Source: a virus
Length of the DNA: 64,000 bases
Reading direction: 5' to 3' (one strand)
Virus record (IMG/VR): IMGVR_UViG_3300027779_003464
Coordinates: 54,608 to 118,607 of that record
Position 1 is the first letter of the stretch. Every line of letters starts with the position of its first letter. The position numbers and the translations under genes are program-made. Below, in pieces: positions 23,248 through 61,892 of the stretch. The notes under the pieces are model-generated. The model saw nothing but the letters and a program-made list of their open reading frames with translations, did not search any database and had not been told where the DNA came from.

Positions 23248-26200
23248 ATGAAAAAACTATTCACATTAGTATTACTTATACAGTTATTATTAGTCAATAA
23301 CTCAATTTCCCAATGCACACATACATTTACAGGATACGATTCTTATGGAGATGGGTGGAATGGAGCAAGTGTAACAGTTATGGTTAACGCTCAGCCAGTT
23401 GGGATGATTGCAATGGCTACTGGCGCACAAGAATCTCTTACATTTCAAGCAAACGATGGAGACTTAATTAAATTAGATTGGATTTCTGGAACATATGATT
23501 ATGAAATATCTTGGGATTGCCTAGATGGCGGAAATAATACTATTGCGATGGGAGTATATGGAACCGTTGGAGTCGGAACTGGAGCTTGTCCCGCACCTAC
23601 GCCCTGTGCTACATTAGATTATGTTCAAGACTTTGAAAGTGGAACTACACTACTCGCTGCTACAACTGGCGCGGGGTCAAGTGTTACGATCGATGGCACA
23701 TCCGCTAATTCTAGTGTTTATGGATTACATATGCAAGGAAATACTTCGTCCGGTTGGGGATCATCTTATGCCACAGGATTAGCCGCATTTACAAATTCTA
23801 CTAGCCACATTGCTTCTGTTAGCAGAGAGATATGTGCTCCTTTACAACCTACTGTTAAGATGACTTTTAATAAAATGCAGACATATACTTATAATGTAAA
23901 TTATTCATGGTTCAGAGTTACAGTTAACGGTACCCCTATACCAGATATAAATGGCAATACTTATTTTAATGGTTCTAGTAATATTTGGGAATCAATGGAA
24001 TATAATTTATCAGCATATACAGGAGCAGCTTTTACTTTAGCTTTTGAAACATGTAACAAATATTATACAGGTTATACAACCACTGGAATGGGCGGGGACG
24101 CATCTTATATAGATGATATTCTTATTGCTCAGTCATCAAGCCTATCACCTCCGACTGCCCCTGGATCGATATCAGGAAATAGTTATCCAAACTCCGGAGA
24201 AGTTATAACATATAGTATATCACCAATACAAGGAGCAGATTATTATACATGGACTACTCCTATAGGATGGTCAATAACTTATGGCCAAACGACAACATCC
24301 ATTACTGTGGCTACAAATAATAACTCAGGAACATTATCAGTAACTGCAACTAATCAAGCCGGCACCTCTTCGGCTACGACATTAGCGGTGACATCAGCAG
24401 TTTTAGTAACATCATATCCTTATGAAACAGCTTTCGAAAATGAAACAAATGATGTTACTACAGGCTCCGCTACAGGCTTTACCTTTACAGAAAATGGTTG
24501 GAGAAACGTTAGTGGTGATGATGGGGATTGGAGAACAGATGCAGGTGGAACGGGAAGTACTAATTCCGGTCCTGGTGGTGGAGCATCAAGTGGTGTATCC
24601 GATCATTATCCAGGAACATCATCTGGTAAATATATTTATACGGAAGCGTCAACACCTAATTATCCCTCTAAAGAATTTCATTTATGGTCACCACCCTTTA
24701 ATTTAACTTCTCTAACGGCGCCGACATTGACATTTTGGTATAGTATGTATAGTGTAAGCGGTGCATCCCTAGCCTTACAATATTCTCTTGATAACGGAGC
24801 TAATTGGGCAAATAATATTGCCTTCATGTGTACTACTACATTTCCAATCGCGGTTATTTATCAAGATATGGGAACTAATTGGAGACAAGGATTTGTCGAT
24901 CTATCTGCGTTACAGTCCAATTCGAACATCATGTTTAGATTTATAGTTACTACAGGTACTAGTTGGGATGGCGATATTTGTTTAGATGATATCAAATTAG
25001 TAGATGCTGCTAACACATCAGTGGATGTAGGAGAAAATATTACATTAGGTTCTAGTGCATATGATGGTGCTTATGGATTAGTATTAAATGGAACATCATC
25101 CCAAATAATTAATCCAGAAGGATATAGTATTTCAAATATAACAATTAATAATTCAGATGGAGTAACGGTAGATGGGAGCGATTTAAAGATAGATGGTATT
25201 CTTACATTAACTGATGGAGTAATAACTACCGGATCTAATAAAGTAATAACTACTGCTGCTCCAACTGGATCTATATCAGGCGGTAGTGCAACATCTTTCA
25301 TAAATGGAACACTGAGAAGATATATTGCTACTAGTTCAGCAACTTATATATTCCCTATAGGTAATGGAACTGGAACTTCAAACTACCAAAGAGCTGATTT
25401 AATAAATGGAAACTTAGTTGGAATAAGCTATATAACCGCTTCAACTACTGATATGGCTGGAGGTAATATGACTCAATTAAGTCCAGGCCTTACTCAAAAT
25501 ACTTCGGTATTAGCTGAGATCTTCGATAAGAGTTGGACATTAACTCCTAATGCACAACCGTCAGGCGGAACATATGGCGTGAATCTATATCTTAATGGAG
25601 TTGGTGGAGGAACAATAGCAGATGATAACTTTACAATTGTTAAACGACCAACTGGTTCTACAACATGGAATGATTGGGATTCATTTGAATCAACCACAAC
25701 TATACCGGTTGGGGGAGATCCGGGAAGAACTGTTGCTGGTGGATATATGCAAAAATCAGGATTTACATCATTTAGTGACTTTGGCGGCGGCGGATCCGGC
25801 GGAGGACCCTTACCGATAGTTTTAATTAGTTGGGATGCTGAAATAGTTGGAGAATCTACTTCATTAACTTGGTCGGTAGCTTCACAGGTAAACAATGATT
25901 TTTATTCAATACACAGAAGTTTAGATTGTGAACATTGGGAAGAGGTTGCTAAAATACCTGGAGCAGGTAATGCTAATTCATTAATGAACTATCATATTTT
26001 CGATGAGAATCCTTATATAGGACAATCTTATTACAGATTAATGCAAACCGATTATGATGGTAAAACTGAGAAATTTAGTTTATTGGGAGTATTTTACGAC
26101 AAACCAATTATACTAAGTATCAATCCAAATCCAGTTGAAGAGGTATTAACATTATACTTATCTGAAACGCTAAAAGGAGTAACTCACGTTACTATCTACA

Positions 26201-26349
26201 ATACAAGAGGACAACAACTTTACACCAAAGGTTTTATCGGAAATTGGAAAGTAATTGAATTAGATGTGTCAAACTATAAAAAAGGTTATTATCTACTAGA
26301 CGTAGATCACAACCACCGCAAGGGAACATTAAAATTTATAAAAGAATAA
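23248..26349 (+). CDS. large secreted protein with signal peptide, PKD-like and MAM-like domains and a T9SS C-terminal sorting domain
   Basis: Sec signal; DSYGDGWNG; DHYPG..GKYIYTEAS...GDICLDDI (MAM); PLPI.L...YYRL.Q.D.DG; NPNP...KGYYLL...KFIKE (Por secretion tail). Confidence 0.88.
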   Translation: MKKLFTLVLLIQLLLVNNSISQCTHTFTGYDSYGDGWNGASVTVMVNAQPVGMIAMATGAQESLTFQANDGDLIKLDWISGTYDYEISWDCLDGGNNTIAMGVYGTVGVGTGACPAPTPCATLDYVQDFESGTTLLAATTGAGSSVTIDGTSANSSVYGLHMQGNTSSGWGSSYATGLAAFTNSTSHIASVSREICAPLQPTVKMTFNKMQTYTYNVNYSWFRVTVNGTPIPDINGNTYFNGSSNIWESMEYNLSAYTGAAFTLAFETCNKYYTGYTTTGMGGDASYIDDILIAQSSSLSPPTAPGSISGNSYPNSGEVITYSISPIQGADYYTWTTPIGWSITYGQTTTSITVATNNNSGTLSVTATNQAGTSSATTLAVTSAVLVTSYPYETAFENETNDVTTGSATGFTFTENGWRNVSGDDGDWRTDAGGTGSTNSGPGGGASSGVSDHYPGTSSGKYIYTEASTPNYPSKEFHLWSPPFNLTSLTAPTLTFWYSMYSVSGASLALQYSLDNGANWANNIAFMCTTTFPIAVIYQDMGTNWRQGFVDLSALQSNSNIMFRFIVTTGTSWDGDICLDDIKLVDAANTSVDVGENITLGSSAYDGAYGLVLNGTSSQIINPEGYSISNITINNSDGVTVDGSDLKIDGILTLTDGVITTGSNKVITTAAPTGSISGGSATSFINGTLRRYIATSSATYIFPIGNGTGTSNYQRADLINGNLVGISYITASTTDMAGGNMTQLSPGLTQNTSVLAEIFDKSWTLTPNAQPSGGTYGVNLYLNGVGGGTIADDNFTIVKRPTGSTTWNDWDSFESTTTIPVGGDPGRTVAGGYMQKSGFTSFSDFGGGGSGGGPLPIVLISWDAEIVGESTSLTWSVASQVNNDFYSIHRSLDCEHWEEVAKIPGAGNANSLMNYHIFDENPYIGQSYYRLMQTDYDGKTEKFSLLGVFYDKPIILSINPNPVEEVLTLYLSETLKGVTHVTIYNTRGQQLYTKGFIGNWKVIELDVSNYKKGYYLLDVDHNHRKGTLKFIKE

Positions 26350-38716: not shown

Positions 38717-39205
38717 TTCATCTTTCATAGGATTCTTATCGCTTATGCAAATATCTCCTAATTCATTACTTTTACAGGTAACTCCTAAAGCTGATTTTAA
38801 TCTTGCCCAGACTTTATTAATAATTGGATTGTGGCGCCTTCCAATTCCAGAATAAAGATGTCCTAGCCAGTCTACTAAACTTCGATATATCTTAGTTCCT
38901 AATCCAAGTCCTCTAAGTTCTTCTGCCAATGTTATATGAATTTGATAAAGAATTCCTTGTATTATTTGAATATCTACTATTACTCCTTTCTTTATAATAT
39001 CTGTTTCTAATGGTATATCTAATTCTAACCAAATAATATTCCTGCCGTTATCTCCAATTTGTTTCCAATCTAAATCTCGCCAGCTTATCTTCTTTACCCA
39101 ATCTATATCTGATTTATCTATGTCAATTTGCTCTGGAAATCTTAATCCTCCGAGCTCTTCAAAGGATTCCCATAATTTATATTGCATTGCTTTATGGCTA
39201 GCCAT
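38696..39205 (-). CDS. GNAT-like acetyltransferase
   Basis: HITLAEELRGLGLGTKIY (R/QxxGxG acetyl-CoA loop). Confidence 0.6.
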   Translation of the reverse strand: MASHKAMQYKLWESFEELGGLRFPEQIDIDKSDIDWVKKISWRDLDWKQIGDNGRNIIWLELDIPLETDIIKKGVIVDIQIIQGILYQIHITLAEELRGLGLGTKIYRSLVDWLGHLYSGIGRRHNPIINKVWARLKSALGVTCKSNELGDICISDKNPMKDELLEIFR

Positions 39206-39207
39206 TG

Positions 39208-39522
39208 TTATATACTTTTATTTTTTCTTATCATATATAAAGATGCAGCTTCCTTTAAGCTTTCACTCCAGTCGCTTAACTTTAAAACATTATCCTGTAT
39301 AGAGAATCCGTTCTCTTTAAATTCTTCAAACATATGATGGTTTAATATATTATTCTTTTTTATTTTTATAGCCGTTTGTATTTCAATATCCTCTTTCTCA
39401 TGAAAAGGATTAGCCGATTTAATAAATTCTACTAGATCAGACAACATACCCATTAATTCTCTTTGGTCGTCCATTTGATTTTCAGACTCTCGTATTAGTC
39501 TGCTGTTTTGTCTATTTGCCAT
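39208..39522 (-). CDS. hypothetical protein
   Basis: 104 aa ORF. Confidence 0.5.
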   Translation of the reverse strand: MANRQNSRLIRESENQMDDQRELMGMLSDLVEFIKSANPFHEKEDIEIQTAIKIKKNNILNHHMFEEFKENGFSIQDNVLKLSDWSESLKEAASLYMIRKNKSI

Positions 39523-39610
39523 AGTTTAAGATTATTGTATATTACTATTTATTTTAATTATACCGAGATAATTAGTATAATATTTAGATAAATCATTAAA
39601 ATTACTATTT

Positions 39611-40045
39611 ATGAAATTACAATTGAATAAAGTTGAGATGTTAAAGGTATTACATAGTGCTTTCTGTAACGGAGGATTAAATGAATTAAGATATTGTGAT
39701 GTTGAATTAAACGTATTAGAAAAAGAATATGTAAATGCCAGAAATAGATTAGAAAAACAAATATTAAAGGGCAATAATGAAAACGTGTACTATGTTGGCA
39801 CAGATGGACCAACAGTTTGTTTAGAAGATGTATATTTAGAAATATTAAGAGAAGGAGAGGCAATTAATTTCATAGATCATAATAATGGTAAAAAAATAGG
39901 CTTTACTCTTAGTAAAGCAATAAAATCCTTATCCAGAGAAGAATTTGCGTCTGATGTATTAAAAACTGTAAAGGGTGGAGATGATGCTTGGACTGGATTT
40001 AATCTTATTCAAGGATGTTTATACGGAGAAGTAGTTTATGGATAA
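39611..40045 (+). CDS. hypothetical phage protein
   Basis: C-term Q..LYGEVVYG resembles a recurrent phage small-protein ending. Confidence 0.6.
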   Translation: MKLQLNKVEMLKVLHSAFCNGGLNELRYCDVELNVLEKEYVNARNRLEKQILKGNNENVYYVGTDGPTVCLEDVYLEILREGEAINFIDHNNGKKIGFTLSKAIKSLSREEFASDVLKTVKGGDDAWTGFNLIQGCLYGEVVYG

Positions 40046-40048
40046 ATT

Positions 40049-40258
40049 ATGATACATAAAGATACACTAATATCGGTTATAGAATCTAATAGAGCGTGGT
40101 CGACTGCTAAGCATAGGTCTGCTGATATGCTATTAAAATATCACAATAGCCAGGAAATAAGAGACTACATTTGGTCTCTTTTTGTTAAAACCAAGGATTA
40201 TTATTATTGTTCAATATTAAAAATGAAGAAGAATGGGAAAGAAGAGAGAAATAAATGA
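40049..40258 (+). CDS. hypothetical protein
   Basis: Packed ORF in the + strand array. Confidence 0.45.
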   Translation: MIHKDTLISVIESNRAWSTAKHRSADMLLKYHNSQEIRDYIWSLFVKTKDYYYCSILKMKKNGKEERNK

Positions 40259-40442
40259 ATATAGACAGGTAAAAGATTCAGTATATAAGCGGCCTAAAAG
40301 CCATGGAAATAGAATCAGTAGCTTATGTGGACTAGAGATAGATCTATTTGTAGAAGAAATGGTAAACGAATACCCGAATTACTATAGTCTAGGGCAAGCA
40401 CTCCATCATATCTATCTTGAAAATAAAAAATTAAATGAATAG
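40233..40442 (+). CDS. hypothetical protein
   Basis: Packed ORF in the + strand array. Confidence 0.5.
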   Translation: MGKKREINEYRQVKDSVYKRPKSHGNRISSLCGLEIDLFVEEMVNEYPNYYSLGQALHHIYLENKKLNE

Positions 40443-40531
40443 AAATGAACAAGAATTACACAAGGATATTAAGCGTGTGGCTATAGCCTTGGAAAAATTA
40501 GTTAAGTTAATGACAAAAATGATGAAAGAAA

Positions 40532-40741
40532 ATGGATGATAAAACAACATATAATTACAAAGAAGATAGTTACCCATACATGTATCATTTGTCTAATCAT
40601 AGAAGTAATGATCAGAAGTGGGCATGTATGATAAGGGAAAATTATACTAGCTACTTCAATAACCCAATATCGGTTAAAATAGGATACGGCGAAACTCCAG
40701 AGCTTGCATTTAAAAATGTTAAAGATCTAGAAGATGAATAG
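40532..40741 (+). CDS. hypothetical protein
   Basis: GYGETPELA motif; packed ORF. Confidence 0.5.
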   Translation: MDDKTTYNYKEDSYPYMYHLSNHRSNDQKWACMIRENYTSYFNNPISVKIGYGETPELAFKNVKDLEDE

Positions 40742-40774
40742 TATAAACATATAGAGATGCATAAAACTGAATAA

Positions 40775-41026
40775 ATGAACACACAAAAGCAATCCTATTA
40801 CGGAAGACATAACTTACCACAAAAGAATAAAATGTCAAAGGCATCAATGATCAATTTAGTTTATTACTATAATCTTAAAAAACTAGGAAGATCTGATGAG
40901 TACATATTTAATCTGATACAACCTGAAAGACGTGAACAGTTCTTTAAGGACATACTACACAGATATACACCAACACCAGTAAAAAAGAAAAATTGGATCC
41001 AAACACTATTTCAAGTAGAAAGATAA
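40775..41026 (+). CDS. hypothetical protein
   Basis: Packed ORF. Confidence 0.45.
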   Translation: MNTQKQSYYGRHNLPQKNKMSKASMINLVYYYNLKKLGRSDEYIFNLIQPERREQFFKDILHRYTPTPVKKKNWIQTLFQVER

Positions 41027-41036
41027 AGTAAAAACA

Positions 41037-41234
41037 ATGAGTAAGAAAAAAACATATCACATTAGAAAAACAATTTTTCCAGAAAAAATTTCAGTTATTA
41101 TTAATGATGGACTAGGAGTTGTAGCCGGTTTTAATTTTGATGAGGCAGTAAAGATGTGTCAATTATTAAACGCAAATTCTAATCATGATTGTAAATATGA
41201 ATTAGTACAAGTAAACCAAAACAAAGATGACTGA
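41037..41234 (+). CDS. hypothetical protein
   Basis: Ends within the junction motif (NQNKDD*). Confidence 0.5.
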   Translation: MSKKKTYHIRKTIFPEKISVIINDGLGVVAGFNFDEAVKMCQLLNANSNHDCKYELVQVNQNKDD

Positions 41235-41484
41235 ACAAGAAATAATATCACTAGGCTTTAAGAAGGAGACAGACGAAGACCTTGATGGACCATTCTACTA
41301 TTATGTATTAGACATAGTAGAAGGGCTATACTGTATTACAGATGCAAGTGATGAGGCTGCTCTTGAAAATGATGAGTGGACTGTAGAGCTAAGTTTTGAC
41401 TGTAACCCAAGAATAAAGTTCAGGGATGTTAAGTCATTAACTGAGTTAATTAACTTATTAAACCAAAACAAAGAAGATGAGTAA
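41227..41484 (+). CDS. hypothetical protein (cassette)
   Basis: Starts and ends in junction motifs. Confidence 0.6.
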   Translation: MTEQEIISLGFKKETDEDLDGPFYYYVLDIVEGLYCITDASDEAALENDEWTVELSFDCNPRIKFRDVKSLTELINLLNQNKEDE

Positions 41485-41683
41485 ATTAGAAGTTAAAAAA
41501 TGTACATTAGAAATAATAGATTATTTAGGTAGTAGAAATGGTTTTGATGATTGGTGGATGCAAGTAGAGGATGATGAAGAAATTGAGATAACTAAAAAGT
41601 TAGAAGATATTATTGAAAGAAGATTAAACCAAAAAGAAGAAACCCTATTATGTACTCCTGATAATTGTAGACATGGATATTAA
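41477..41683 (+). CDS. hypothetical protein (cassette)
   Basis: ATG supplied by a junction motif variant. Confidence 0.55.
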   Translation: MSKLEVKKCTLEIIDYLGSRNGFDDWWMQVEDDEEIEITKKLEDIIERRLNQKEETLLCTPDNCRHGY

Positions 41684-41698
41684 ACCGAAACAAAGAAG

Positions 41699-41809
41699 AT
41701 GAAAGAGATAACATTAACCTTAGAAGAATTAGAACAAGAAATTGAACAAGCATTTGTACATGGTCAGGGTAATTCAGTAATGAAAGAGAAGATTATACAA
41801 GTTCTGTAA
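41699..41809 (+). CDS. 36-aa ORF or gene remnant (cassette)
   Basis: MKEITLTLEELEQEIEQAFVHGQGNSVMKEKIIQVL*; ATG from the motif variant at 41682. Confidence 0.35.
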   Translation: MKEITLTLEELEQEIEQAFVHGQGNSVMKEKIIQVL

Positions 41810-41836
41810 TGAGTAGACTAATAAACCAAAACAAAG

Positions 41837-42214
41837 ATGAGAAATAAAGTAGAAATAGATGGTAAGTGGTATGAATTGGTACCCTTAGAAGAAGTAGAAA
41901 AAAAAGAAAGTAGTCCAGACCCTGTTTTCTATTACGGATGTGATAGTGAATGTGGGATTTTTAGATTCAACATATTATTAAATGATGATGGTGACGAATG
42001 GAAAGGTACTGGGTCATTAGAATACTACTCCAAAGGTGTAAATAATAAAGATGATGTTGAAATCTGGGATAATGACATTTTTTTAAAAGATGTGTTAGAT
42101 AATCCAACAGATACACTTGTCATTGAAGTTAAAGAAATAATAAAACATAATAGTGGGGAATTCGAAGACTTAGTTCATTTACTAAAACAAGTTAGAGAAA
42201 AAGGGTGGATATAA
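41837..42214 (+). CDS. hypothetical protein (cassette)
   Basis: ATG from junction motif; VEIDGKWY N-term. Confidence 0.6.
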   Translation: MRNKVEIDGKWYELVPLEEVEKKESSPDPVFYYGCDSECGIFRFNILLNDDGDEWKGTGSLEYYSKGVNNKDDVEIWDNDIFLKDVLDNPTDTLVIEVKEIIKHNSGEFEDLVHLLKQVREKGWI

Positions 42215-42229
42215 TCAAAAAAACAGACA

Positions 42230-42730
42230 ATGGCTAACATTACATTAAAAAATAATCCGGTAACAACCTCAGGAAATTTACCTAACATTGGCGAGAGTGC
42301 AAAAAACTTTTCTCTTATTGGAAAAGATTTGAAAGAAGTAACGTTAAACGATTTTCAAGGCGAAAGAATTGTAATGAACATTTTTCCATCTGTTGATACG
42401 GGAATTTGTGCTATTTCGGTAAAAACATTCAATGAAAAAGCTGCAAACCTTAGCAATACAAAAGTGCTTTGTATTTCAAGAGATTTGCCTTTTGCACAAA
42501 ATAGATTTTGTGGGGCAGAAAACATTGAAAATGTATTGACATTATCCGATTTTGCAAATGGAACTTTTGGGAAAGATTATGGGCTAACCATAATGGATGG
42601 CGCACTAGCAAACCTACATTCCAGATGTATTGTGGTACTGGATGAATCCCACAAAATAATACATACTGAGCAAGTAGATGAAATTACATCAGAGCCAAAT
42701 TATGAAAAAACAATAGCAGCATTAAATTAA
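42230..42730 (+). CDS. tpx: thiol peroxidase Tpx (atypical 2-Cys peroxiredoxin)
   Basis: NIFPSVDTGICA, ISRDLPFAQNRFCGAE and EITSEPNYE signatures. Confidence 0.95.
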   Translation: MANITLKNNPVTTSGNLPNIGESAKNFSLIGKDLKEVTLNDFQGERIVMNIFPSVDTGICAISVKTFNEKAANLSNTKVLCISRDLPFAQNRFCGAENIENVLTLSDFANGTFGKDYGLTIMDGALANLHSRCIVVLDESHKIIHTEQVDEITSEPNYEKTIAALN

Positions 42731-42803
42731 CATTTATAAAAATATACAATTAATTTATTAAAACAAAAAATGTGGTTACAAAGATTATAAAACCAAAACA
42801 AAG

Positions 42804-43022
42804 ATGAGTAGAACAGATTACTTACCACTAATTCCTATATGTTCAGATAAAGAACTAAAAGAAATAGCAGAGGATTGGTGTCACCTAGTCAGAGAAGAAC
42901 CCACTAATGCTACAATAAATGCATTTATGATGGGAGCAAAAATAGCTATATCTAATAAAGGATGGGTTCGTCGAGATAAGAAAGATAATATAAATGATTG
43001 TGGTGATGCAAATGAATATTAA
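42804..43022 (+). CDS. hypothetical protein (cassette)
   Basis: ATG from junction motif. Confidence 0.5.
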   Translation: MSRTDYLPLIPICSDKELKEIAEDWCHLVREEPTNATINAFMMGAKIAISNKGWVRRDKKDNINDCGDANEY

Positions 43023-43230
43023 ACAAAAAGAAAGACTAATGGGTGATAAAGAAATTGATATGGAAAATACAAAAGAAAATATTAAAAAGATATTCAAAGA
43101 AACAAAGGGGTGTACTAAGAACGAATTTATCATGGGAATAGAGAAATATTTTAAAAGGAACAAAATGCTAAGTGATAAGCAGCTTGATTGCTTAATAAAC
43201 TGGTACAAAGATACTAAAATAAAAAATTAA
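42994..43230 (+). CDS. hypothetical protein (start uncertain)
   Basis: LSDKQ motif; packed ORF. Confidence 0.45.
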   Translation: MIVVMQMNIKQKERLMGDKEIDMENTKENIKKIFKETKGCTKNEFIMGIEKYFKRNKMLSDKQLDCLINWYKDTKIKN

Positions 43231-43233
43231 GTT

Positions 43234-43473
43234 ATGGAAACATTATTAACCGTGCTAATTACTTTAGGAGTATGTACAATAGTATATACGTTTGTGAGGG
43301 TGATTAAGTTAAATAGGAAAGTTGAAGAGATCGACATTATAAAACTAGATTTATGCGACTTTGAAGATAAAATTTACAATATGATTGAAAATCTAGAAAG
43401 AGATTCGCGTAAAAATGATGATGATATACTAGCAAAGGTAGTGGAGTTAAAAGATAAGACAAAACAAGAATGA
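43234..43473 (+). CDS. membrane-anchored coiled-coil protein
   Basis: N-term TM helix. Confidence 0.55.
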   Translation: METLLTVLITLGVCTIVYTFVRVIKLNRKVEEIDIIKLDLCDFEDKIYNMIENLERDSRKNDDDILAKVVELKDKTKQE

Positions 43474-43745
43474 TTGAAGCGACAATTGCAAAATGGCAAG
43501 AATATTTAGGTTTGTTAGACTGGAATATAACTACTGAGCGGATAGATCCTAACCAAGTGATGTATAATGGAGAAACATACTTCATAGGAATATCTACTTT
43601 TCCAGAAACATTAAGCGGTATAATTTACCATGATATAGATTTATATGAAAATGCGATTCTTCATGAGTTATTACATGTTCGTTACCCAGAAAAGGATGAA
43701 AATTGGATAGTGAATAAGACAGATGAAATATTAAAACAGAGATGA
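43470..43745 (+). CDS. small HExxH metallopeptidase-like protein
   Basis: WQ..LGL.DW.I ... ILHELLH. Confidence 0.6.
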   Translation: MIEATIAKWQEYLGLLDWNITTERIDPNQVMYNGETYFIGISTFPETLSGIIYHDIDLYENAILHELLHVRYPEKDENWIVNKTDEILKQR

Positions 43746-44221
43746 ATAAAATTATTTTAGTAGGCAAAGCCGCAGCTGGAAAAGATTATATGAGAAAAAT
43801 ACTCGAAGAAAGAGGATTCAAATATGGTGTTTCCTATACCACTCGACCTAAACGTGAAGGAGAAATAGATGGGGAAGATTATTACTTCTTAACTGACGAA
43901 GAATTCGCAGATATGGATGCAGATAATCAATGGTATGAATATGTTCAATTTAACGGTTGGATGTACGGTACAACAAACTCGCAATTCTTAGATAAATGTA
44001 ATCTGTTTATCATGACTCCTGCAGGAATAGATTTTATCGATCCTGTAGAAAGAAAAAATTGTACGATAATTTATTTAGATATTCATCTTGAAGTTAGAAG
44101 AAGGCGATTAGAGGAGAGAGGAGATGTCAATGATAAAATTGAAAGAAGAATAGAGGCAGATGAAAAGGATTTTTCTAATTTTACCAATTTTGATATTATG
44201 GTAAATACTCCTAATTTTTAA
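43742..44221 (+). CDS. gmk: guanylate kinase
   Basis: GKAAAGKD, VSYTTRPKREGEIDGEDYYF, WMYGT. Confidence 0.9.
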   Translation: MNKIILVGKAAAGKDYMRKILEERGFKYGVSYTTRPKREGEIDGEDYYFLTDEEFADMDADNQWYEYVQFNGWMYGTTNSQFLDKCNLFIMTPAGIDFIDPVERKNCTIIYLDIHLEVRRRRLEERGDVNDKIERRIEADEKDFSNFTNFDIMVNTPNF

Positions 44222-44269
44222 TCTTATAAAAAACAATAGATATGAAACTAAAATTAAAACAAAAATAAA

Positions 44270-44521
44270 ATGGCAGACATAACGATGTGTACAGGAAAGG
44301 GATGTAATATGACAAATACTTGTTACAGATACAAAGCACCTGTAAATGAATACAGACAAGCATACTTTGTAAATGCTCCCCATAAAGATAAAGTAGATGA
44401 AGATAATAATACTATTTGTGATGAGTATTGGATGGTAGATAAACTTAGGGGATATAAAACAGGAATACCTGTTGAGGTGAAGGACACTTCTAAGGAGATA
44501 AACCAAAACAAAGATGAGTAA
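44270..44521 (+). CDS. small Cys-rich phage protein
   Basis: MADITMC.G..C.....CYRY; ends in junction motif (NQNKDE*). Confidence 0.6.
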   Translation: MADITMCTGKGCNMTNTCYRYKAPVNEYRQAYFVNAPHKDKVDEDNNTICDEYWMVDKLRGYKTGIPVEVKDTSKEINQNKDE

Positions 44522-44593
44522 AGCTACTCCAGTAGCAAAAACTACTAAATAAACTAAAAATAGCTACTATAGTATAAACCAAAACAAAGATGA
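44522..44593 (+). repeat. paired AGCTACT-NN-AGTA palindromes plus junction motif (copy 1)
   Basis: AGCTACTCCAGTA at 44522 and AGCTACTATAGTA at 44562; same arrangement at 46123/46164. Confidence 0.75.
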
Positions 44594-44742
44594 AGATAAG
44601 CATACATAAAATAGAATCACAACTCTATCTATTGCCATTTGTTAAAGTAACATATGATAAGGTACTTAACGGTAGCTACGAATTTGTAATAGGGTGGTTC
44701 AATATTGGGCTATCAATATCTTATAAACCAAAACAAAGATGA
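44590..44742 (+). CDS. 50-aa hypothetical protein (cassette)
   Basis: MKISIHKIESQLYLLPF...SYKPKQR*; bounded exactly by two junction motifs. Confidence 0.5.
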   Translation: MKISIHKIESQLYLLPFVKVTYDKVLNGSYEFVIGWFNIGLSISYKPKQR

Positions 44743-45428
44743 TGAGTAGAGTAAAGCTAATAACACATACTCCAGATGCTGAGGAAACTATTGTAGAAAT
44801 TGCAAGAGTAAGCTCCAAGAGAACAGATAAAAAATCAAAGCCGGAAGGACTTATTAATTATCTTATTAAGCACAAACATTGGTCACCATTTGAGCATGCT
44901 TCGATGACACTAGAGATTAATACTTCAAAAGCTATTGGTATTCAATTGATTAGACATAGAAGCTTTACGTTTCAAGAGTTTTCTCAAAGATATCAAGACG
45001 TAAATATTTTAGGAGAAATATTTGAACCAATAGAATTAAGAAAGCAAGCAGAAGATAATAGGCAATCTTCTACCGAAAGCTTTGATCCTAATATTAAAAA
45101 ATATATTAACAAAGATATTAATGGGTTTTTGAATGTACCTGCATCTGATTTAATTAATACTCATTTAGAAAATACTAAAGCCCTATATTCAGATCTTCTT
45201 GAAGTAGGAGTAGCGAGAGAAGTAGCTAGAATGGTTTTACCTTTATGTACTAAGACAAAGATATACATGACGGGTACATTAAGAAGTTGGATACACTTTT
45301 TTGATTTAAGAGATGACGGACATGCTCAAAAAGAAATACAAGAAATAGCAAAAGAAGGCAAAGAGATATTCGCCAACCAATTTCCAATACTATCTAAAGC
45401 ATTAAAATGGAAGATAATAAACGTGTAA
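44739..45428 (+). CDS. thyX: FAD-dependent thymidylate synthase
   Basis: HWSPFEH, QLIRHRSFTFQEFSQRY, AREVARMVLP, HAQKEI. Confidence 0.96.
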   Translation: MMSRVKLITHTPDAEETIVEIARVSSKRTDKKSKPEGLINYLIKHKHWSPFEHASMTLEINTSKAIGIQLIRHRSFTFQEFSQRYQDVNILGEIFEPIELRKQAEDNRQSSTESFDPNIKKYINKDINGFLNVPASDLINTHLENTKALYSDLLEVGVAREVARMVLPLCTKTKIYMTGTLRSWIHFFDLRDDGHAQKEIQEIAKEGKEIFANQFPILSKALKWKIINV

Positions 45429-45709
45429 CAAACAAATCCCAGGTGAGTGAAAAACTTTGGTATCTCTATGTTGTGGAATGTTCCGATAATTCACTCTACA
45501 CTGGTATCACTACTGACTTGAATAGAAGAATCACTGAACATAATTCATCAAACAAAGGTGCGAAATATACACGACCAAGAAGGCCCGTTACTTTAGTCTA
45601 TTCAGAAATACACCCGAACCGTTCGGCCGCATCAAAATCTGAATATCGAACTAAGCAACTTTCAAAACAAAATAAACTTTTACTAATCCAAAACAAAGAT
45701 GATGAGTAA
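45407..45709 (+). CDS. GIY-YIG nuclease (YhbQ-like)
   Basis: WYLYVVECSDNSLYTGITTDLNRR..EHN...GAKYTR.RRPV. Confidence 0.92.
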   Translation: MEDNKRVTNKSQVSEKLWYLYVVECSDNSLYTGITTDLNRRITEHNSSNKGAKYTRPRRPVTLVYSEIHPNRSAASKSEYRTKQLSKQNKLLLIQNKDDE

Positions 45710-45794
45710 ACATATGAGTTTACAAAACCTTATAAAAGTAAACAGATTTGTTTACTAATGGTTAGTACTGATTAATAATACAAAACTTAAATAA

Positions 45795-46082
45795 TTGGAT
45801 TTACCAACAGATTACACAAAATTAGATTGGAGGAAAGGAGAAAAGGCTAAAGTTAGAGAGCAATATATTATAGAGCAAAACAATAAATGCTACTACTGTA
45901 ACGAATCTTTAAGTGAAGAACCACCTAAAAGAATAACAGATAATAAAATTAACTTAGAATTATTCCCTCCAAATATGTTAGCACACCCTATACATTTACA
46001 ACATAACCACGAAACAAATATGACAGAAGGAGCAGTACACGCTTATTGTAATTGTGTGCTATGGCAATATGAAGGACGATAG
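45795..46082 (+). CDS. endonuclease VII-like / HNH protein
   Basis: Q...CYYC ... HLQHNHET....G.VH..CN. Confidence 0.65.
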   Translation: MDLPTDYTKLDWRKGEKAKVREQYIIEQNNKCYYCNESLSEEPPKRITDNKINLELFPPNMLAHPIHLQHNHETNMTEGAVHAYCNCVLWQYEGR

Positions 46083-46122
46083 TATTAATGGTAACATAGA
46101 AATAAACCACACTAAGCCATAT

Positions 46123-46200
46123 AGCTACTCCAGTAACAAAAGATAATCAGTAGTTAAAGAAATAGCTACTATAGTATTAATTAAACCAAAACAAAGATGA
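46123..46200 (+). repeat. paired AGCTACT-NN-AGTA palindromes plus junction motif (copy 2)
   Basis: Matches the 44522-44593 arrangement. Confidence 0.75.
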
Positions 46201-46270
46201 GTAATAATTTAAGATATTATTTAAAACGATTAGATATTTATAAGTATAAGAATATTATAAATTAATTAAG

Positions 46271-46498
46271 ATGAGCAGATTAGATATTAACGAGTGGACT
46301 AAAATAACCGATAGGTTTACAGAATTGTGTAAGTTAGGAAAAAGTCGACCTGGTGAATGCTATTTTCAAGCATTGGAAGAAATTAAACCTGATTTACATT
46401 CTAAACTAGTAAATACAGAGTATGATAGTTCAACATCAGAGCATAATCTAATAACTTTATTACACTATTTAAATGACTCAAATGAAATCAAGAGCTAA
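46271..46498 (+). CDS. hypothetical protein
   Basis: Preceded by AAACG-N16-TATAA. Confidence 0.55.
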   Translation: MSRLDINEWTKITDRFTELCKLGKSRPGECYFQALEEIKPDLHSKLVNTEYDSSTSEHNLITLLHYLNDSNEIKS

Positions 46499-47843
46499 GT
46501 TAGAAAAATTTATAAATTCTTTATTAAAAGATATAAAATCTAAAGTAGGACAAGATGCTGAATTTCCAAAGTATGGAAGTTTCTTTAATAAAAAGTCAGG
46601 CCGAGTAAAAGATATTAAATTAGACTGGGAATCATATGAAGAGGTTGACAAAGAAACGAATACTAATCATATTAACTTTGTATCTAATATAAAAGTTAGA
46701 GGTAAAGAATATAAAATAAGATTACATGGGCGACTCAACGAAAAAGAAATACATAATCTAGAAATAGATTTTGAACTATTAAATACAGAAGATTTAGATG
46801 GAAGATCTACGACTGGAACAGGTGATTCATTCCAAGTACTAGGTAAAATTTTTAGTGGAATAACTGAATTTATCAAAGATAATACAAAAATTCTATTATC
46901 GTTTCAATTCTCAGTAAAAGGAGTAAATAGAATAAGACTATTTAAATCCTTAGTCGAAACCATTACTTTACCGCAAATAAACTATACATATATCCTAGAT
47001 AATCACCCAACCGAAGATGCTATTATTTTTAGATTTCGTAGAATATCAAACAATCAACCTAAAGATTCTGTAAGAATTAATGATATAGATATATTAATTA
47101 ATCCAAACAGTAATGATGATATACCAGATACTATTTTAAAGGTTATATCAGTTCTTAAAGATAAACATAATATATTCACTAGTATAAAATGTGACCATCA
47201 TCCATATATCTATTCTAAAAAATATACTATTTCAGGAATAAAAAAACTAAAGATAGAAGAAAGTGCTTTGTCTAGAATTAAGGAAATATTAGAATTAAAT
47301 AAGGATTCAGAATCTCATGAAATGATAAAGTCAATACTTTCAAAAGAATTATCTCTAATTTGGAAAGAAGCTGATATAAAAACAGGATATAAAGAATATA
47401 ATAAAGATAAGATATCTTTTAAGGACGCTTTAAAGTTTAATGAGGATTATCATTCTTTAAATCTACATCAAGAATGTGTAATAAATTCTGAATATTTAGA
47501 TACTCCTATAAAAATTAGAGTAAAAACTAAAGATCTTATATCCATAACTTCGTCTCAAGAATATTTAGATCATTGGAATACTCAACTTGAAACTAATCTG
47601 CTATATAATAAATATTATGATATGTATAAAATCATTAGAAGATTTTGTAATTCTATATTTAAATATAAAATGTTTAAAAGTAATTTTTTTAGCAAAGATC
47701 AAATGCTATATCTAGAAAAATATTATTCGATCTTCGATAACACCATTGATAAGTCAGATAAAAAATTAAATAATATTGTTATGGATGCGTATAACAAATT
47801 TATAGAATTAAAAATATTTAAAACATATGGCAGAGAAAATTAA
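46473..47843 (+). CDS. hypothetical protein
   Basis: 456 aa ORF; TTGTGDSFQV motif. Confidence 0.7.
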   Translation: MTQMKSRAKLEKFINSLLKDIKSKVGQDAEFPKYGSFFNKKSGRVKDIKLDWESYEEVDKETNTNHINFVSNIKVRGKEYKIRLHGRLNEKEIHNLEIDFELLNTEDLDGRSTTGTGDSFQVLGKIFSGITEFIKDNTKILLSFQFSVKGVNRIRLFKSLVETITLPQINYTYILDNHPTEDAIIFRFRRISNNQPKDSVRINDIDILINPNSNDDIPDTILKVISVLKDKHNIFTSIKCDHHPYIYSKKYTISGIKKLKIEESALSRIKEILELNKDSESHEMIKSILSKELSLIWKEADIKTGYKEYNKDKISFKDALKFNEDYHSLNLHQECVINSEYLDTPIKIRVKTKDLISITSSQEYLDHWNTQLETNLLYNKYYDMYKIIRRFCNSIFKYKMFKSNFFSKDQMLYLEKYYSIFDNTIDKSDKKLNNIVMDAYNKFIELKIFKTYGREN

Positions 47844-48060
47844 AATGTCCGGTCAAGGATATAGATTAGAATATAGAATGGGAACAAGATGGAATGAAAA
47901 AAGTATGGGATGGTATATTGATTGTAAATCTTGTGGAGAACAAACGAGAATAGGATCAGATGAAGTAGATGCAGCAACCTGTTCAAGCTGCGTAAACGCT
48001 CAAGTAAATTCGATATTCCCAACAACAACCTTTAAAATTGAAGATAATGAAGATGCATGA
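47827..48060 (+). CDS. small Zn-ribbon protein
   Basis: CKSC...CSSC. Confidence 0.55.
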   Translation: MAEKIKMSGQGYRLEYRMGTRWNEKSMGWYIDCKSCGEQTRIGSDEVDAATCSSCVNAQVNSIFPTTTFKIEDNEDA

Positions 48061-48349
48061 CGGAATATCTATAAAGAACAAAAGAACTCTAACTTTAGAT
48101 TTTGGAGATCATATTGTCAACGTAGTAAAACAAGGAAAAGTAGATAGAAAATTATATTATTCATGGAGTACAATGGGAGCAACTGAATGCGGTCCAGAAT
48201 ATTCTAGTGAATTATTAACAGAAAACGAAGTAATAACTAGATTAGAATTAATTACGGATTCTAACTTAGATTCTCTTTCTTCTGAAGAATATTTAGCTGT
48301 CTCTCTATTATTAGGAAAAGGCGCAAATGTTTCATTATCAAACCTTTAA
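48038..48349 (+). CDS. hypothetical protein
   Basis: Packed ORF. Confidence 0.5.
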   Translation: MKIMKMHDGISIKNKRTLTLDFGDHIVNVVKQGKVDRKLYYSWSTMGATECGPEYSSELLTENEVITRLELITDSNLDSLSSEEYLAVSLLLGKGANVSLSNL

Positions 48350-48371
48350 AAATGCCTCAAATTAAATACTG

Positions 48372-48572
48372 ATGTCTAAGCCTCTTACTCAAATAGATTA
48401 CGATCATATCAATATGATATTAGAAGAATCGGCTAAGTATGGAGTAAAGCGAGAAGTTTGCGAAAGCGTATCTGAACTATTAAAAACGAATCCTGATATT
48501 GATATAATTGAAGCATATAACTCAGCCTTTAAATGGTGTCTTCCTGGTTCTTCCATCGAGTCCACAACTTAG
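48372..48572 (+). CDS. hypothetical protein
   Basis: Last gene of the + strand array. Confidence 0.45.
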   Translation: MSKPLTQIDYDHINMILEESAKYGVKREVCESVSELLKTNPDIDIIEAYNSAFKWCLPGSSIESTT

Positions 48573-51773: not shown

Positions 51774-52407
51774 CTAGTTTATTTATAGTCTATTGTTTAC
51801 TACGGAGTAACTCCTTCTACGGCTATCGGGCAACGTAGTTCCTGGTGCCGCGGCCCTACTTAATAATATTAATAAAAAGAATAACTCTATATAAGATAAA
51901 AGAAATTATATTTAATATCCTATAGACATTACTTAACCTATAGCTATCAAATAAAATAACCTTATCTATATAAACATTATCTTATACCGAGTTACTATTT
52001 TTAGATCTAGGTACAGGAATAAAAAAGGATAAAGGAATAACCCTTATCCTTAAGCTATAGAATAAGCTTTCGCTATAGGCTAAAGAAATCCAAAGCTAAC
52101 CCCAAGTATCCGGCTACCACGACCAGCGAGGTCTCAAGATATACAACAGGGGGACTACGGAGTCCCTGGCCTACGCTTACCCTCACGTTGGCCTCTGGGT
52201 ACTATAAAGGTTTTCTAGTGTTGGGCGTCTTTCCCGAGCCGTCTAGAAAAATATTCGAGCGAGGGAGCCAACATGTGCTCGCCCTACCCGGTGCTCTAGC
52301 TCGCTCATGTCTTGACAAAAGAATACTATCCCCTTAATAAATAATACTATAGATTATCACAGGTGTGACTACGGAGTACCTGGTTAATCTCAAATAAAAC
52401 TTATGAT
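51774..52407. other. 630-bp non-coding, partly GC-rich region with several inverted repeats (origin/terminus or ncRNA candidate)
   Basis: No ORF >=60 aa; stems at 52151-52166, 52211-52250 and 52257-52306; three CTACGGAGT copies. Confidence 0.5.
52021..52050 (-). terminator. intrinsic terminator-like hairpin with no adjacent upstream CDS
   Basis: Minus strand AGGAUAAGGG-UUAUU-CCUUUAUCCU followed by a U tract. Confidence 0.5.
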
Positions 52408-52989
52408 ATGACTAAAAAGGAGGCAATAGAAGTTATAGGATGTTCCTGGAGTACCTTGAGACGCTATGTCGGTAGGGGACTGATAGGAACCACCACTCTA
52501 CAGAATGGCCACAAGAACTATTGGGAAGACGATGTCTATGCCATGGTAGGTAAACGAATACCACAAGAACATTGGATAGCTATATACTGCCGGGTCAATG
52601 GTAAGTCTAAGGAGGCCGATGAAAAACTACTAGAACAGAAGAGAATTATCTATAGCTGGTGCGCTAAGCGAGGTATTACTATAGATAAAGTATACGAGGA
52701 GCGAGGTCCTTCTACGGAGTACTCACCGGAGCGTCGCCCTGTACTACATTCACTTATGCAAGATATATTTAGTAAGAAGGTAGATGCTGTTATAGTAGAG
52801 ACTAAAGATAGAATAGCTAGAGTCGGCTGGGACATGTTCCAAGAGATGTTTAAGTACCACGGCGTAGAGCCAATAGTTATTAATAAGGTAATTGAAGATC
52901 CGTTCTATCAAGCTGAACAGGCGGATGATATAACTAAGATACTAGAACAGGCTAAGATAGACCGCCTAGGAGATATCAAGAAAGATTAA
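52408..52989 (+). CDS. IS607 TnpA-like serine recombinase (MerR-type HTH plus resolvase domain), catalytic Ser replaced by Asn
   Basis: KEAIEVIGCSWSTLRRY...G...Y HTH; IYCRVN (canonical YxRVS); KDRIAR.G; no tnpB nearby. Confidence 0.85.
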   Translation: MTKKEAIEVIGCSWSTLRRYVGRGLIGTTTLQNGHKNYWEDDVYAMVGKRIPQEHWIAIYCRVNGKSKEADEKLLEQKRIIYSWCAKRGITIDKVYEERGPSTEYSPERRPVLHSLMQDIFSKKVDAVIVETKDRIARVGWDMFQEMFKYHGVEPIVINKVIEDPFYQAEQADDITKILEQAKIDRLGDIKKD

Positions 52990-53262
52990 TAGATCACGCC
53001 TAGGACACTCAATCTTCCATCATCAGTATATCTAGTATAGGATATAAAACATCATCGTCTAATAACAATAAATCACTATTTCCCGAATCACCCCGCGGAG
53101 CTAGTACATCTAGGGATCCAAAGTTCTCGGCGGGCACGGGAACCGAGCGAACAGGTATCCCATTGGATTTAAAGTGTCAATTTTTGATACTATACTAGTT
53201 GGCTCGGCCCGAGCGAGAAGTGGAAGTCTACCAGATCGCACTGTTGGCTCCTGGCTTGGAGC

Positions 53263-53290
53263 AAAAAAAAGGCCCAACCGAAGTTAGACC
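53263..53290 (-). terminator. intrinsic terminator
   Basis: GGUCUAAC-UUCG-GUUGGGCC followed by U8. Confidence 0.85.
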
Positions 53291-53316
53291 CTTTTCCCCC
53301 TAAAAATAAACAATTA

Positions 53317-60769: not shown

Positions 60770-60844
60770 GTTAAATTGTTTTAAGTTATTATAGTACAAA
60801 TATAGAAATAATAATTGGGATAAAAAAATCCTGGCGAACTTTTT

Positions 60845-61369
60845 TTAACAAAAGATTACTAATCCTTTATCTGATGCTATCTTCAGCGCGCTCATCCATT
60901 CATTATACTTATCAATATAGTATATAGAATCCTCACTATCATCGCAGTTCTCCTTAACATATTTCTTAAAGATAGTTTTATACTCTTTAAAGTCTCTGTA
61001 TAATTCAGCCGCTACGGAGTAACATATAGTTCCTTCACAATCTGAAAAATCTATTAAAGCTCCAAATGCTTCGCTCCCCCAGTATCTACCTGATGACCAG
61101 AAGTCGTCTGCACTTATACCATGTATTGCTTTACATAATATATCTCTAAATTGATTATATCCACGATAGCTACCTGCTCTAAAACTACCTTCAACGGATT
61201 CTGCAGTAAGATATACTTTTCCCATACCGTTTGTTAGTGGAAAAGAGTGGCATCTTTCCTTAAAATCGTCGCCAACTCCGAACGTAAATTCTTCAAACAG
61301 CTCGCTGCCTAAACCTAATAGTTCGTCCGATGTTTTGACTTTACTTATATACATAATATCTAGTCCCAT
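60845..61369 (-). CDS. conserved hypothetical phage protein
   Basis: MGLDI..., GSY.GYN.FR, LI.FSDCEG.I motifs. Confidence 0.7.
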   Translation of the reverse strand: MGLDIMYISKVKTSDELLGLGSELFEEFTFGVGDDFKERCHSFPLTNGMGKVYLTAESVEGSFRAGSYRGYNQFRDILCKAIHGISADDFWSSGRYWGSEAFGALIDFSDCEGTICYSVAAELYRDFKEYKTIFKKYVKENCDDSEDSIYYIDKYNEWMSALKIASDKGLVIFC

Positions 61370-61620
61370 TATTCTGGAAGGTATATAGGTTCAACGGCAG
61401 ACACAGATCTCCATGAGTTCTTCTTTAAATCGAAGTATGGAACTTGTTTTGAAGATGATTTTCCTGTACCTTTAGGATGGTCATCTAGAGGAACTAACTC
61501 CATGTTAGTGGTCCCCAAGGCAATCCTTAGGTTCCCGTCCTTCTTCCTAAATGCGAATTGAATTGTTCCTTTAGTAAGTCTTTCCCGTAATGCTGAGGGT
61601 GAAATAGGTTCTAATACCAT
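61369..61620 (-). CDS. SH3 beta-barrel (WYL_2/DUF2693-like) protein
   Basis: L..G...F.F.KKDG..R.A.GT ... YFDL.K..WRS. Confidence 0.8.
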   Translation of the reverse strand: MVLEPISPSALRERLTKGTIQFAFRKKDGNLRIALGTTNMELVPLDDHPKGTGKSSSKQVPYFDLKKNSWRSVSAVEPIYLPE

Positions 61621-61842: not shown

Positions 61843-61867
61843 AAAAAAAGGGAAACCGAAGTTCCCC
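61843..61867 (-). terminator. intrinsic terminator
   Basis: GGGGAAC-UUCG-GUUUCCC followed by U7. Confidence 0.85.
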
Positions 61868-61892
61868 TTTTAAAATTAGACTTAGACTAGAG

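Follow-up and report, generated by a model that had tools for sequence, protein, structure and literature searches.

A repeated gene junction with stops in three frames as a probable crossover point for small-gene cassettes in marine jumbo phages

The DNA analyzed here, called the window throughout, is a stretch of 64,000 nucleotides (nt) that forms the right-hand 64 kb (positions 54,608 to 118,607) of the 118,607-bp virus record IMGVR_UViG_3300027779_003464 in IMG/VR, whose estimated completeness is 45%. The record encodes a T4 gp20-like portal, a DNA polymerase, and an endolysin domain, and the nearest GenBank portals are those of uncultured huge phages (LR756500, 38.5% identity) and of Lak phages of Prevotella (33.5%); its carrier is an uncultured marine T4-superfamily jumbo phage. 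One of the hyperplastic accessory regions of this phage is a block of mostly small genes that is flanked by two - strand blocks, and the middle of the block holds ten copies of a short repeat, the 18-mer AAACCAAAACAAAGATGA, whose ATG serves as the start codon of small genes (Table 1). This repeat, a candidate gene junction and point of gene exchange, is the subject of the present report.

Table 1. Junction copies and other features of the small-gene array (window coordinates)
Feature	Coordinates	Strand	Basis or associated gene
Mostly small genes, ~25, hyperplastic accessory region	39611..48349	+	ORF list, gene map
Junction copy 1, exact	41213..41230	+	ATG 41227, 85-aa ORF
Junction copy 2, variant (1 mismatch) with 3-nt spacer (..CAAAGAAGATGA)	41460..41477	+	ATG 41477, 68-aa ORF
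Junction copy 3, 2 mismatches, spacer 3	41682..41699	+	ATG 41699, 36-aa ORF
Junction copy 4, exact	41823..41840	+	ATG 41837, 125-aa ORF
Junction copy 5, exact, in gap 3' of redoxin gene	42790..42807	+	ATG 42804, 72-aa ORF
Junction copy 6, exact	44500..44517	+	followed by 12-codon ORF (44514), part of composite element
Junction copy 7, exact	44576..44593	+	ATG 44590, 50-aa ORF
Junction copy 8, exact	44725..44742	+	ATG 44739, thyX
Junction copy 9, 1 mismatch	45685..45702	+	followed by 19-codon ORF and hairpin 45738-45755
Junction copy 10, exact	46183..46200	+	followed by 22-codon ORF
Redoxin/AhpC-TSA family gene, no motif at start	42230..42730	+	Pfam PF08534, 5.8e-30
Guanylate-kinase-like (nucleotide kinase) gene, no motif at start	43742..44221	+	Pfam PF00625, 2e-20
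thyX (flavin-dependent thymidylate synthase), 229 aa, motif-started	44739..45428	+	Pfam PF02511 (Thy1/ThyX), 1.4e-52
Small GIY-YIG nuclease-domain protein, 100 aa	45407..45709	+	Pfam PF01541, 1.8e-19
95-aa ORF, weak endonuclease VII-like match	45795..46082	+	PF02945, E 0.0039, 17.5 bits versus cutoff of 23.6
55-70-nt element, copy A (AGCTACTCCAGTA..., then AAATAGCTACTATAGTAT)	44519..44575	+	repeat families, alignment
55-70-nt element, copy B	46120..46182	+	repeat families, alignment

Seven of the ten copies are exact and three are variants, all on the + strand between 41213 and 46200. Shuffled sequences contained on average 0.20 matches to the 18-mer and at most two, and none of 100 shuffles gave ten. 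A search of the whole record returned the same ten forward copies, none in reverse, and none for the pattern written backwards, in agreement with the original prediction, made from the letters of the window, that the motif is confined to this interval. The same prediction had described motif ATGs that start genes and unrelated upstream proteins that share a tail because they run into the motif, and the open reading frames (ORFs) and their translations bear out both observations. The seven motif-started ORFs listed in Table 1 are all present. ORF 41037-41234 reads through copy 1 and ends in NQNKDD, and the corresponding tails are NQNKEDE for ORF 41227-41484 upstream of copy 2, NQNKDE for ORF 44270-44521 upstream of copy 6, KPKQR for the 50-amino-acid (aa) ORF 44590-44742, and QNKDDE for the GIY-YIG ORF, which ends inside copy 9. 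Some upstream ORFs end on a TAA just before the motif instead of reading into it; ORF 41477-41683, upstream of copy 3, terminates at the TAA that the motif itself provides in frame 0. Three copies followed only by short stubs had been likened to empty slots. The stubs, of 12, 19, and 22 codons, do exist, but the one at 44514 belongs to a conserved composite element and is not simply vacant.

The motif extends well beyond this record. An exact-match scan of IMG/VR found it in at least 119 stretches from at least 114 viral contigs, and the comparative loci used below (numbered L) were drawn from the matches listed. When copies of the 14-nt core were counted in the fetched DNA with at most one mismatch, 69 contigs among the matches listed held at least two, 43 at least three, 22 at least five, and 5 at least ten, and at all 45 loci with three or more copies every copy lay on the same strand. 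The 312 motif-started ORFs compared fall into 215 cassette families, 158 of which were found in a single locus. Five large records (126 to 380 kb) carry the core in one to three arrays with 12 to 24 copies, versus 0 to 1 for a reversed-pattern control. Relative to the portal of the window, identity is 67% in record G004, 34% in G001, and 22 to 25% in G002, G003, and G005, the last three with marginal E values. No copy was found in LR756500, whose portal is closer than that of G001, and the phages in GenBank contained nothing beyond chance-level partial matches.

A scan of 596 Gb of prokaryote genomes returned 94 stretches, a number near that expected by chance; most are single copies away from gene starts that open ORFs of a few codons. 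The multicopy stretches are small contigs of metagenome-assembled genomes (MAGs) that carry the same cassettes and are most likely mis-binned phage DNA. Mimicry of host genes was rejected as an origin of the motif on these counts. Contigs L168/L174 (JAZGEW010000157.1), L171/L213, L188, and L202, from bins labeled as Promethearchaeia, Campylobacteraceae, Chlamydiales, and Aenigmatarchaeota MAGs, hold two to four junction copies with typical cassettes, and L188 bears the same KPKQR cassette as the window at 44590; they too are probably mis-binned phage DNA. Within the main texts of papers, a full-text literature search for the 14-nt core gave no match, and in the portions drawn on here of the literature on promoter-early stem-loops, Bacteroidia translation, bS21-encoding phages, and "moraphages," we found no description of the motif. 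It is a real, nonchance, and apparently undescribed feature.

Comparison of 336 unique contexts extends the consensus to the 24-nt sequence tTAAACCAAAACAAAGATGAGTAAA. A T precedes the core in 83% of contexts, and the commonest letters after ATGA are G (53%), T (63%), A (78%), A (70%), and A (60%); no position upstream of -15 is conserved. The spacing of the start codon is nearly fixed: of 319 contexts, 275 have the ATG immediately after the core and 34 have it behind a spacer of exactly 3 nt. In the same 319 contexts, the ORF that begins at the motif ATG has a median length of 59 aa and reaches at least 30 aa in 91% of cases, compared with 23% for random ATGs. All three reading frames meet a stop codon in the extended sequence: frame 0 has a TAA placed 15 nt ahead of the ATG, frame 1 the TGA contained in ATGA, and frame 2 the TAA contained in GAGTAA. 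Among 290 junctions, the frame-0 TAA is present in 245, the frame-1 TGA in 280, a frame-2 stop at +5 in 175, and all three together in 147. These stops are used. Of 250 upstream ORFs, 182 end exactly at a built-in stop, and the three frames share them almost evenly (55 in frame 0, 54 in frame 1, and 73 in frame 2). Because the stops serve upstream genes in every frame, most junctions hold stops for which their present upstream neighbor has no need.

The leader of the motif resembles an initiation region of the Bacteroidia. Counted from the A of the ATG, it has A at -2, -3, -4, -6 to -9, and -12 to -14. The sections of PMC6847099 drawn on here give A at 0, -3, -6, -12, and -13 as the measured positive determinants of initiation in Flavobacterium johnsoniae, and the motif satisfies every determinant named there. 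In the record, a Shine-Dalgarno (SD)-like sequence precedes only 5 of 164 starts, and the starts are rich in A at -11 to -14 and at -2/-3. The other motif-bearing loci have such a sequence at 38 of the 701 starts of long ORFs, and in none of 58 loci does the share exceed 30%. The predicted probability of being unpaired is higher for motif initiation regions than for other starts (0.65 versus 0.56, p = 5e-20). Pairing with 16S rRNA, whether SD-like or of another kind, was considered and rejected: with the Flavobacteriaceae 16S sequence L223, which represents one possible host lineage, the best duplex reached -9.9 kcal/mol versus -10.9 ± 1.9 for 300 shuffles, and pairing with the 3' tail reached -3.4 versus -4.3 ± 1.7. 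Four junctions folded as single-stranded DNA gave minimum free energies of 0 to -2.3 kcal/mol with z-scores of -0.31 to +1.40, and the junctions are without dyad symmetry, hairpin, or any inverted repeat detected in a repeat search of the window. The proposal that the motif is a portable, SD-less start or coupling site is thus supported, on sequence grounds, by the rarity of SD-like starts, the A determinants, and the three-frame stops in use, and we infer that the motif would drive translation, by reinitiation, coupling, or both.

The cassettes between motif copies change order and partners from one phage to the next. In the window, the cassettes at 41227 (A), 41477 (B), and 44590 (C) stand in the order A, B ... 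C. Their homologues, with 57 to 91% aa identity, are arranged as B, another cassette, C, and A in L081 and as a fragment of B, ..., C, ..., A in L038; each is bounded by the motif, and the nucleotide alignments start and stop there (for example, window 41212-41488 against L081 699-425). Cassette 44590 recurs in at least five other viral loci with differing neighborhoods. Cassette 42804 shares 69 to 75% aa identity with motif-array cassettes of G001, G003, and G004; the portals of these records match that of the window at 34%, 22%, and 67% identity, respectively. The record of the window (G000) and G004 are collinear in the replication and portal block but have their arrays at different places, and 4 of the 25 genes in the block at 39611..48349 have a G004 homologue, at four scattered sites.

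Breakpoints coincide with the motif far more often than with control positions. Of 670 ends of blastn homology between loci, 30.1% fall inside a motif copy, compared with 5.8% for nearby random positions, and 40.7% lie within 5 nt of one, compared with 8.0%. We also collected insertion/deletion (indel) and replacement events between loci whose flanks are at least 85% identical. Among the 27 dereplicated events, both ends lie in motif copies in 7 and one end in a further 7. The pairs L038/L113, L040/L046, and L071/L111 provide clean insertions of a single cassette: one partner carries an extra 129 to 360 nt, and the flanking alignments overlap by 16 to 20 nt, which is the motif itself and the trace that crossing-over between direct repeats leaves behind. 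In the pair L048/L082, one cassette replaces three between motif copies. It had been predicted that gene content among relatives would break at the motif, and an invariant content and order between copies would have spoken against exchange; both order and content vary, one-cassette indels are bounded by two copies, and the predicted recombination point is supported by these comparisons.

Retention of neighbors points in the same direction. Counted as pairs times sides, motif-started small genes kept their neighbors in 0 of 31 comparisons at 30 to 50% aa identity, in 0 of 39 at 50 to 70%, in 12 of 87 at 70 to 90%, and in 4 of 52 at 90 to 98%. The corresponding figures for size-matched motif-free genes were 160 of 474, 43 of 182, 39 of 91, and 31 of 58. 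At 98% identity and above, both classes keep their neighbors.

We assign a probability of roughly 60% to the reading that the motif is a gene junction suited to a host blind to SD sequences, one that couples a three-frame stop and restart to a short-homology crossover point for cassettes. Its parts are the stops in three frames, a leader that is rich in A and C, lacks structure, and has A at -3, -6, -12, and -13, and the start codon of the next gene. Whatever its frame, an upstream gene would come to a stop only a few nucleotides from the next AUG, and there ribosomes would either restart or be newly loaded on an initiation region of the optimal Bacteroidia type. Because its copies are identical over 18 to 24 nt, share one orientation, and precede many small accessory genes, they could act as points of short-homology crossover. 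Recombination between copies, within one genome or between coinfecting phages, would then delete, insert, replace, or reorder single-gene cassettes, and every product would remain correctly terminated and translatable. General homologous recombination is the probable mechanism. T4-type phages encode a RecA/UvsX-like protein, and so does the record of the window, G000 (61 bits).

More ambitious, and in our judgment doubtful, is the idea that the junction is an actively maintained exchange standard that needs no integrase. It would then be a 24-nt universal adaptor by which any ORF could be plugged in behind any other and expressed at once, with a dedicated phage factor or continual gene conversion keeping it identical to the letter, and marine jumbo phages with core proteins only 22% identical would be drawing on a common pool of small host-takeover or antidefense genes.

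Several observations weigh against the junction reading. In 13 of the 27 indel and replacement events neither end lies in a motif copy, and 9 of these 13 are near arrays. The neighbor counts are not independent events, and the gene calls of the controls come from a crude ORF caller. Selection for intact genes would also be expected to place breakpoints at the boundaries of genes. Within the array itself, the genes at 42230, 43234, 43470, 43742, and 44270 start without the motif. In contigs from four DNA sequencing runs, nearly all of the joints listed are between two motif copies, but their shorter sides measure only 21 to 38 nt; we therefore treat them as repeat artifacts and draw nothing from them. 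Finally, the preferences of ribosomes leave unaccounted for the invariant C's at -5, -10, and -11 and the identity of all 18 positions in phages whose portals are 22% identical. These C's and the letter-perfect identity point to a sequence-specific factor or to homogenization by recombination, and conservation of this kind across very distant phages may reflect a factor acting in trans.

That conservation also favors a different primary role, in which the motif would serve mainly as an RNA operator. A conserved phage-encoded RNA-binding protein would bind or cleave it and switch this class of small genes on or off together, with shuffling as a by-product. The protein would be a translational repressor or activator like T4 RegA or a processing nuclease like RegB. 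Besides the letter-perfect conservation at 22 to 34% portal identity, C's included, which ribosome preference alone does not demand, the restriction of the site to one gene class in one to three arrays per genome fits an operator, as does its complete absence from LR756500 (38.5% portal identity) if factor and site are present or absent as a pair. RegA operators, moreover, overlap the AUG, as the motif does. We nevertheless regard an operator as unlikely to be the main function, given that no candidate factor was found, that no protein is conserved beside the arrays across loci and that the preinstalled stops in three frames and their even use are left unaccounted for; the RegA family (PF01818) was found in none of five motif-bearing records, but a control gave none in 14 genomes, so this search is uninformative. 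An operator is compatible with the junction reading and could hold in addition to it. We find it harder to credit a DNA promoter for a phage-specific or phage-modified RNA polymerase, with transcripts that begin at or just before the ATG and are leaderless or nearly so, and consider it less likely than the stop/restart junction. The length of 18 to 24 nt, strict conservation, and single orientation resemble those of phage polymerase promoters, and the array has no host-type TAnnTTTG repeat, whereas such repeats are present before the small genes at 60.8 to 63.7 kb on the - strand. Yet nothing is conserved upstream of -15, the ATG spacing of 0 or 3 and the use of three-frame stops by upstream ORFs follow a translational logic, and the overlap of upstream ORFs with the motif suggests polycistronic messages; a section heading of PMC6847099, moreover, describes F. 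johnsoniae transcripts as mostly leadered.

The motif might instead be a strong ribosome-loading site and nothing else, inherited along with its genes, and the plasticity of the arrays would then come from illegitimate recombination and selection for intact genes. Joints in phage mosaics generally fall at gene boundaries, and this explanation accommodates both the 13 events without an end in the motif and the existence of motif-free members in some cassette families. We think it improbable: it does not explain why neighbors are kept so much more often by motif-free than by motif-started genes at 90 to 98% identity (31 of 58 versus 4 of 52), why exactly one motif copy, with overlaps of 16 to 20 nt, remains after clean one-cassette indels, or why unused stops are preinstalled at most junctions. 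Least credible of all, and very improbable, is a genuinely site-specific system with the motif as its site of cutting and joining, whether integron-like or dependent on the serine recombinase encoded at 52408-52989. One-orientation arrays of single-gene cassettes would suit such a system, and this 193-aa recombinase, for which G004 has a homologue, is encoded within the window 6 kb downstream of the array. Its family, though, occurs in two of five motif-bearing records and is missing from the complete G003, and it was rejected as the array recombinase on that distribution; the junctions have neither dyad symmetry nor hairpin; and tyrosine recombinases (PF00589), which include integron integrases, were found in none of five motif-bearing records (G000 to G004, one of them 100% complete), compared with all 14 control genomes. 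The original prediction, too, had noted no integron integrase in the window. The serine recombinase also sits in a GC-rich island of its own that resembles an insertion element.

This island (51800-53300, GC 0.41) has no Rfam match. The recombinase gene in it is flanked by GC-rich noncoding DNA with repeated CTACGGAGT words, and the catalytic domain stands behind an N-terminal extension of ~56 aa, a domain order that we take to be that of IS607-type transposases. The G004 homologue (49% aa identity) lies beside homologues of the genes that neighbor the recombinase in the window, and none was present in three other motif-bearing records.

Other features of the array accompany particular junction copies (Table 1). 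The composite element at copies 6 and 7, composed of the motif, 12 codons, a palindrome, and the motif again, recurs in contig L047 with 87% identity. The 55-70-nt element stands directly 5' of a few junction copies and occurs elsewhere in five loci (L038, L047, L056, L075, and L081). It contains three CTACT/AGTAG words and the palindrome TACTATAGTA, its predicted folding is weak, and it may be a phage-specific promoter or operator. Copies A and B bracket a module of a small ORF, thyX, the GIY-YIG gene, and the endonuclease VII (EndoVII)-like ORF, the last of which is positioned between the hairpin GTAAACAGATTTGTTTAC (window 45738-45755) and copy B. In L038 the same hairpin abuts the 55-70-nt element directly, and the presence of the 95-aa EndoVII-like ORF between the two in the window suggests that this ORF is an inserted free-standing nuclease gene. 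At 1e-5, the remaining motif loci contain no homologue of either the GIY-YIG or the EndoVII-like protein, and the arrays thus have no nuclease linked to them. The interval 39000-48500 contained no known RNA family or tRNA, the window as a whole contained no tRNA, and a sigma70 promoter scan stayed at the shuffle level (62 found versus 60.5). Matches of the array region to cultured phages are limited to thyX and the kinase gene.

Across loci, the larger motif-started genes include thyX (in the window), thyA, a C5 methylase, and a PD-(D/E)XK nuclease; some come from single-copy loci and are possibly chance matches. Two unrelated types of thymidylate synthase are motif-started, thyX at window 44739-45428 and thyA at L034:3149-4117, and an ORF of the MAG contig L150 resembles thyA by its first residues only; L034 and L150 hold one motif copy each. 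In three large records, an array abuts a contig end (G001:113-5539, G005:65-834, and G003:375021-380231), which may reflect a position near the genome terminus or an effect of assembly.

The host of the phage is very probably a member of the Bacteroidota, as judged from the SD-less, A-rich starts, a type IX secretion system (T9SS) domain, TAnnTTTG repeats, and the portal, which is nearest to those of Lak (Prevotella) and huge phages. A 1033-aa protein (window 23248-26349) combines PKD and MAM domains with a T9SS C-terminal sorting domain (Por_Secre_tail), the last being a mark of a Bacteroidota host. At window 60790-63700, on the - strand, at least five copies of a promoter-like repeat of ~45 nt (...TTTTTTTATGTCAA..ATTATTTCTATATTTGTAnTATAAT...) precede small genes. 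The repeat contains TATATTTG, which fits a TAnnTTTG box, presumably the -7 box consensus of the Bacteroidota. This is a second hyperplastic region, which uses repeated promoters in the manner of promoter-early stem-loops (PeSLs) in place of the junction motif. Genes for ribosomal protein bS21 are found at G003:336334-336486 and G005:52455-52613 and in none of G000, G001, and G002; since the gene is present in only two of five motif-bearing records, bS21 is no general partner of the motif, and a link between the two was rejected.

The motif is of high interest both for phage genomics and for the study of translation in SD-less bacteria. It provides a sequence tag for hyperplastic, probably early, arrays of uncultured marine jumbo phages with Bacteroidota-type hosts and makes more than 200 catalogued families of small mobile genes available to screens for antidefense or host-takeover functions. 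It is also a compact candidate element for translation initiation and coupling in genetic tools for the Flavobacteriia.

Several known systems share part of this design. The original prediction called the array integron-like, and the likeness holds insofar as, in both, single and mostly promoterless genes follow one another in the same orientation, a recurring site stands between them, and their content varies between relatives. It goes no further than analogy. The site of the motif includes the start codon, exchange occurs most likely by homology, and at the motif there is no attC-like imperfect palindrome or hairpin fold; this, together with the lack of tyrosine recombinases in the motif-bearing records, rules out an integron. 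If the exchange-standard idea were true, the junction would be the functional equivalent of an integron, operating by way of translation signals and homology. Translational coupling at overlapping stop and start codons of the ATGA type is known in bacterial and phage operons, and the motif likewise places an upstream stop a few nucleotides from the downstream AUG, with ATGA at 280 of 290 junctions; ordinary junctions of this kind serve one frame, whereas the motif is equipped for three and is reused as a portable unit. T4 RegA operators are A-rich RNA sites that overlap the AUG of many early genes. The motif is A-rich and overlaps the AUG as well, but RegA sites are loosely conserved and the motif is identical to the letter; the PF01818 search reported above is uninformative on this comparison.

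Initiation independent of SD sequences in the Bacteroidia has been described as relying on a "Kozak-like" A at -3 and -6 and on A-rich positions from -11 to -14, in the sections drawn on here of Baez et al. 2019 (PMC6847099). Compared with the initiation regions described there, the motif is alike in its A at -3, -6, -12, -13, and -14, its lack of an SD sequence or second nearby AUG, and its low predicted structure. It differs in being a fixed word of 18 to 24 nt with invariant C's rather than a loose preference of the host, and it was not found before host genes in the 596-Gb prokaryote scan.

The closest known kind of element is the PeSL cassette of T4-type phages. As presented in the parts used here of two reports (PMC2839356, Arbiol et al. 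2010; PMC4122927, Comeau et al. 2014), PeSLs are repeated expression cassettes that stand before ORFans in hyperplastic regions and whose copies recombine. Both PeSL and motif are short repeated expression signals directly before small ORFans in hyperplastic regions of T4-superfamily phages, both reach from the stop codon of one gene to the start codon of the next, and recombination between copies of either leads to insertions, deletions, replacements, and swaps of unrelated genes. Four features of PeSLs could be compared directly. The location agrees, with a gp20-like portal in the record, a median ORF of 59 aa, and most cassette families confined to a single locus, and so do the end points, given the excess of homology ends in the motif and the 14 of 27 events with at least one end in a copy. 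The promoter and terminator do not: no TAnnTTTG box lies in or beside the motif, the 5 matches in the 9.5-kb array region being close to the window-wide density, and the junctions do not fold, the hairpin at 45738-45755 and the 55-70-nt element accompanying only a few copies. PeSLs carry a host sigma70-like promoter, a terminator stem-loop, and an SD sequence, none of which is found in the motif, a 24-nt translational junction with stops in three frames that stays identical to the letter at 22 to 34% portal identity. With two of the four features shared and the promoter and stem-loop of the PeSL lacking, the motif works like a PeSL but is not one. Turnover of small genes in large phages without loss of expression is known in detail only for the PeSLs of coliphage-type T4 relatives; the motif would represent the same evolutionary solution rebuilt for hosts whose ribosomes ignore SD sequences, with frame-independent termination added.

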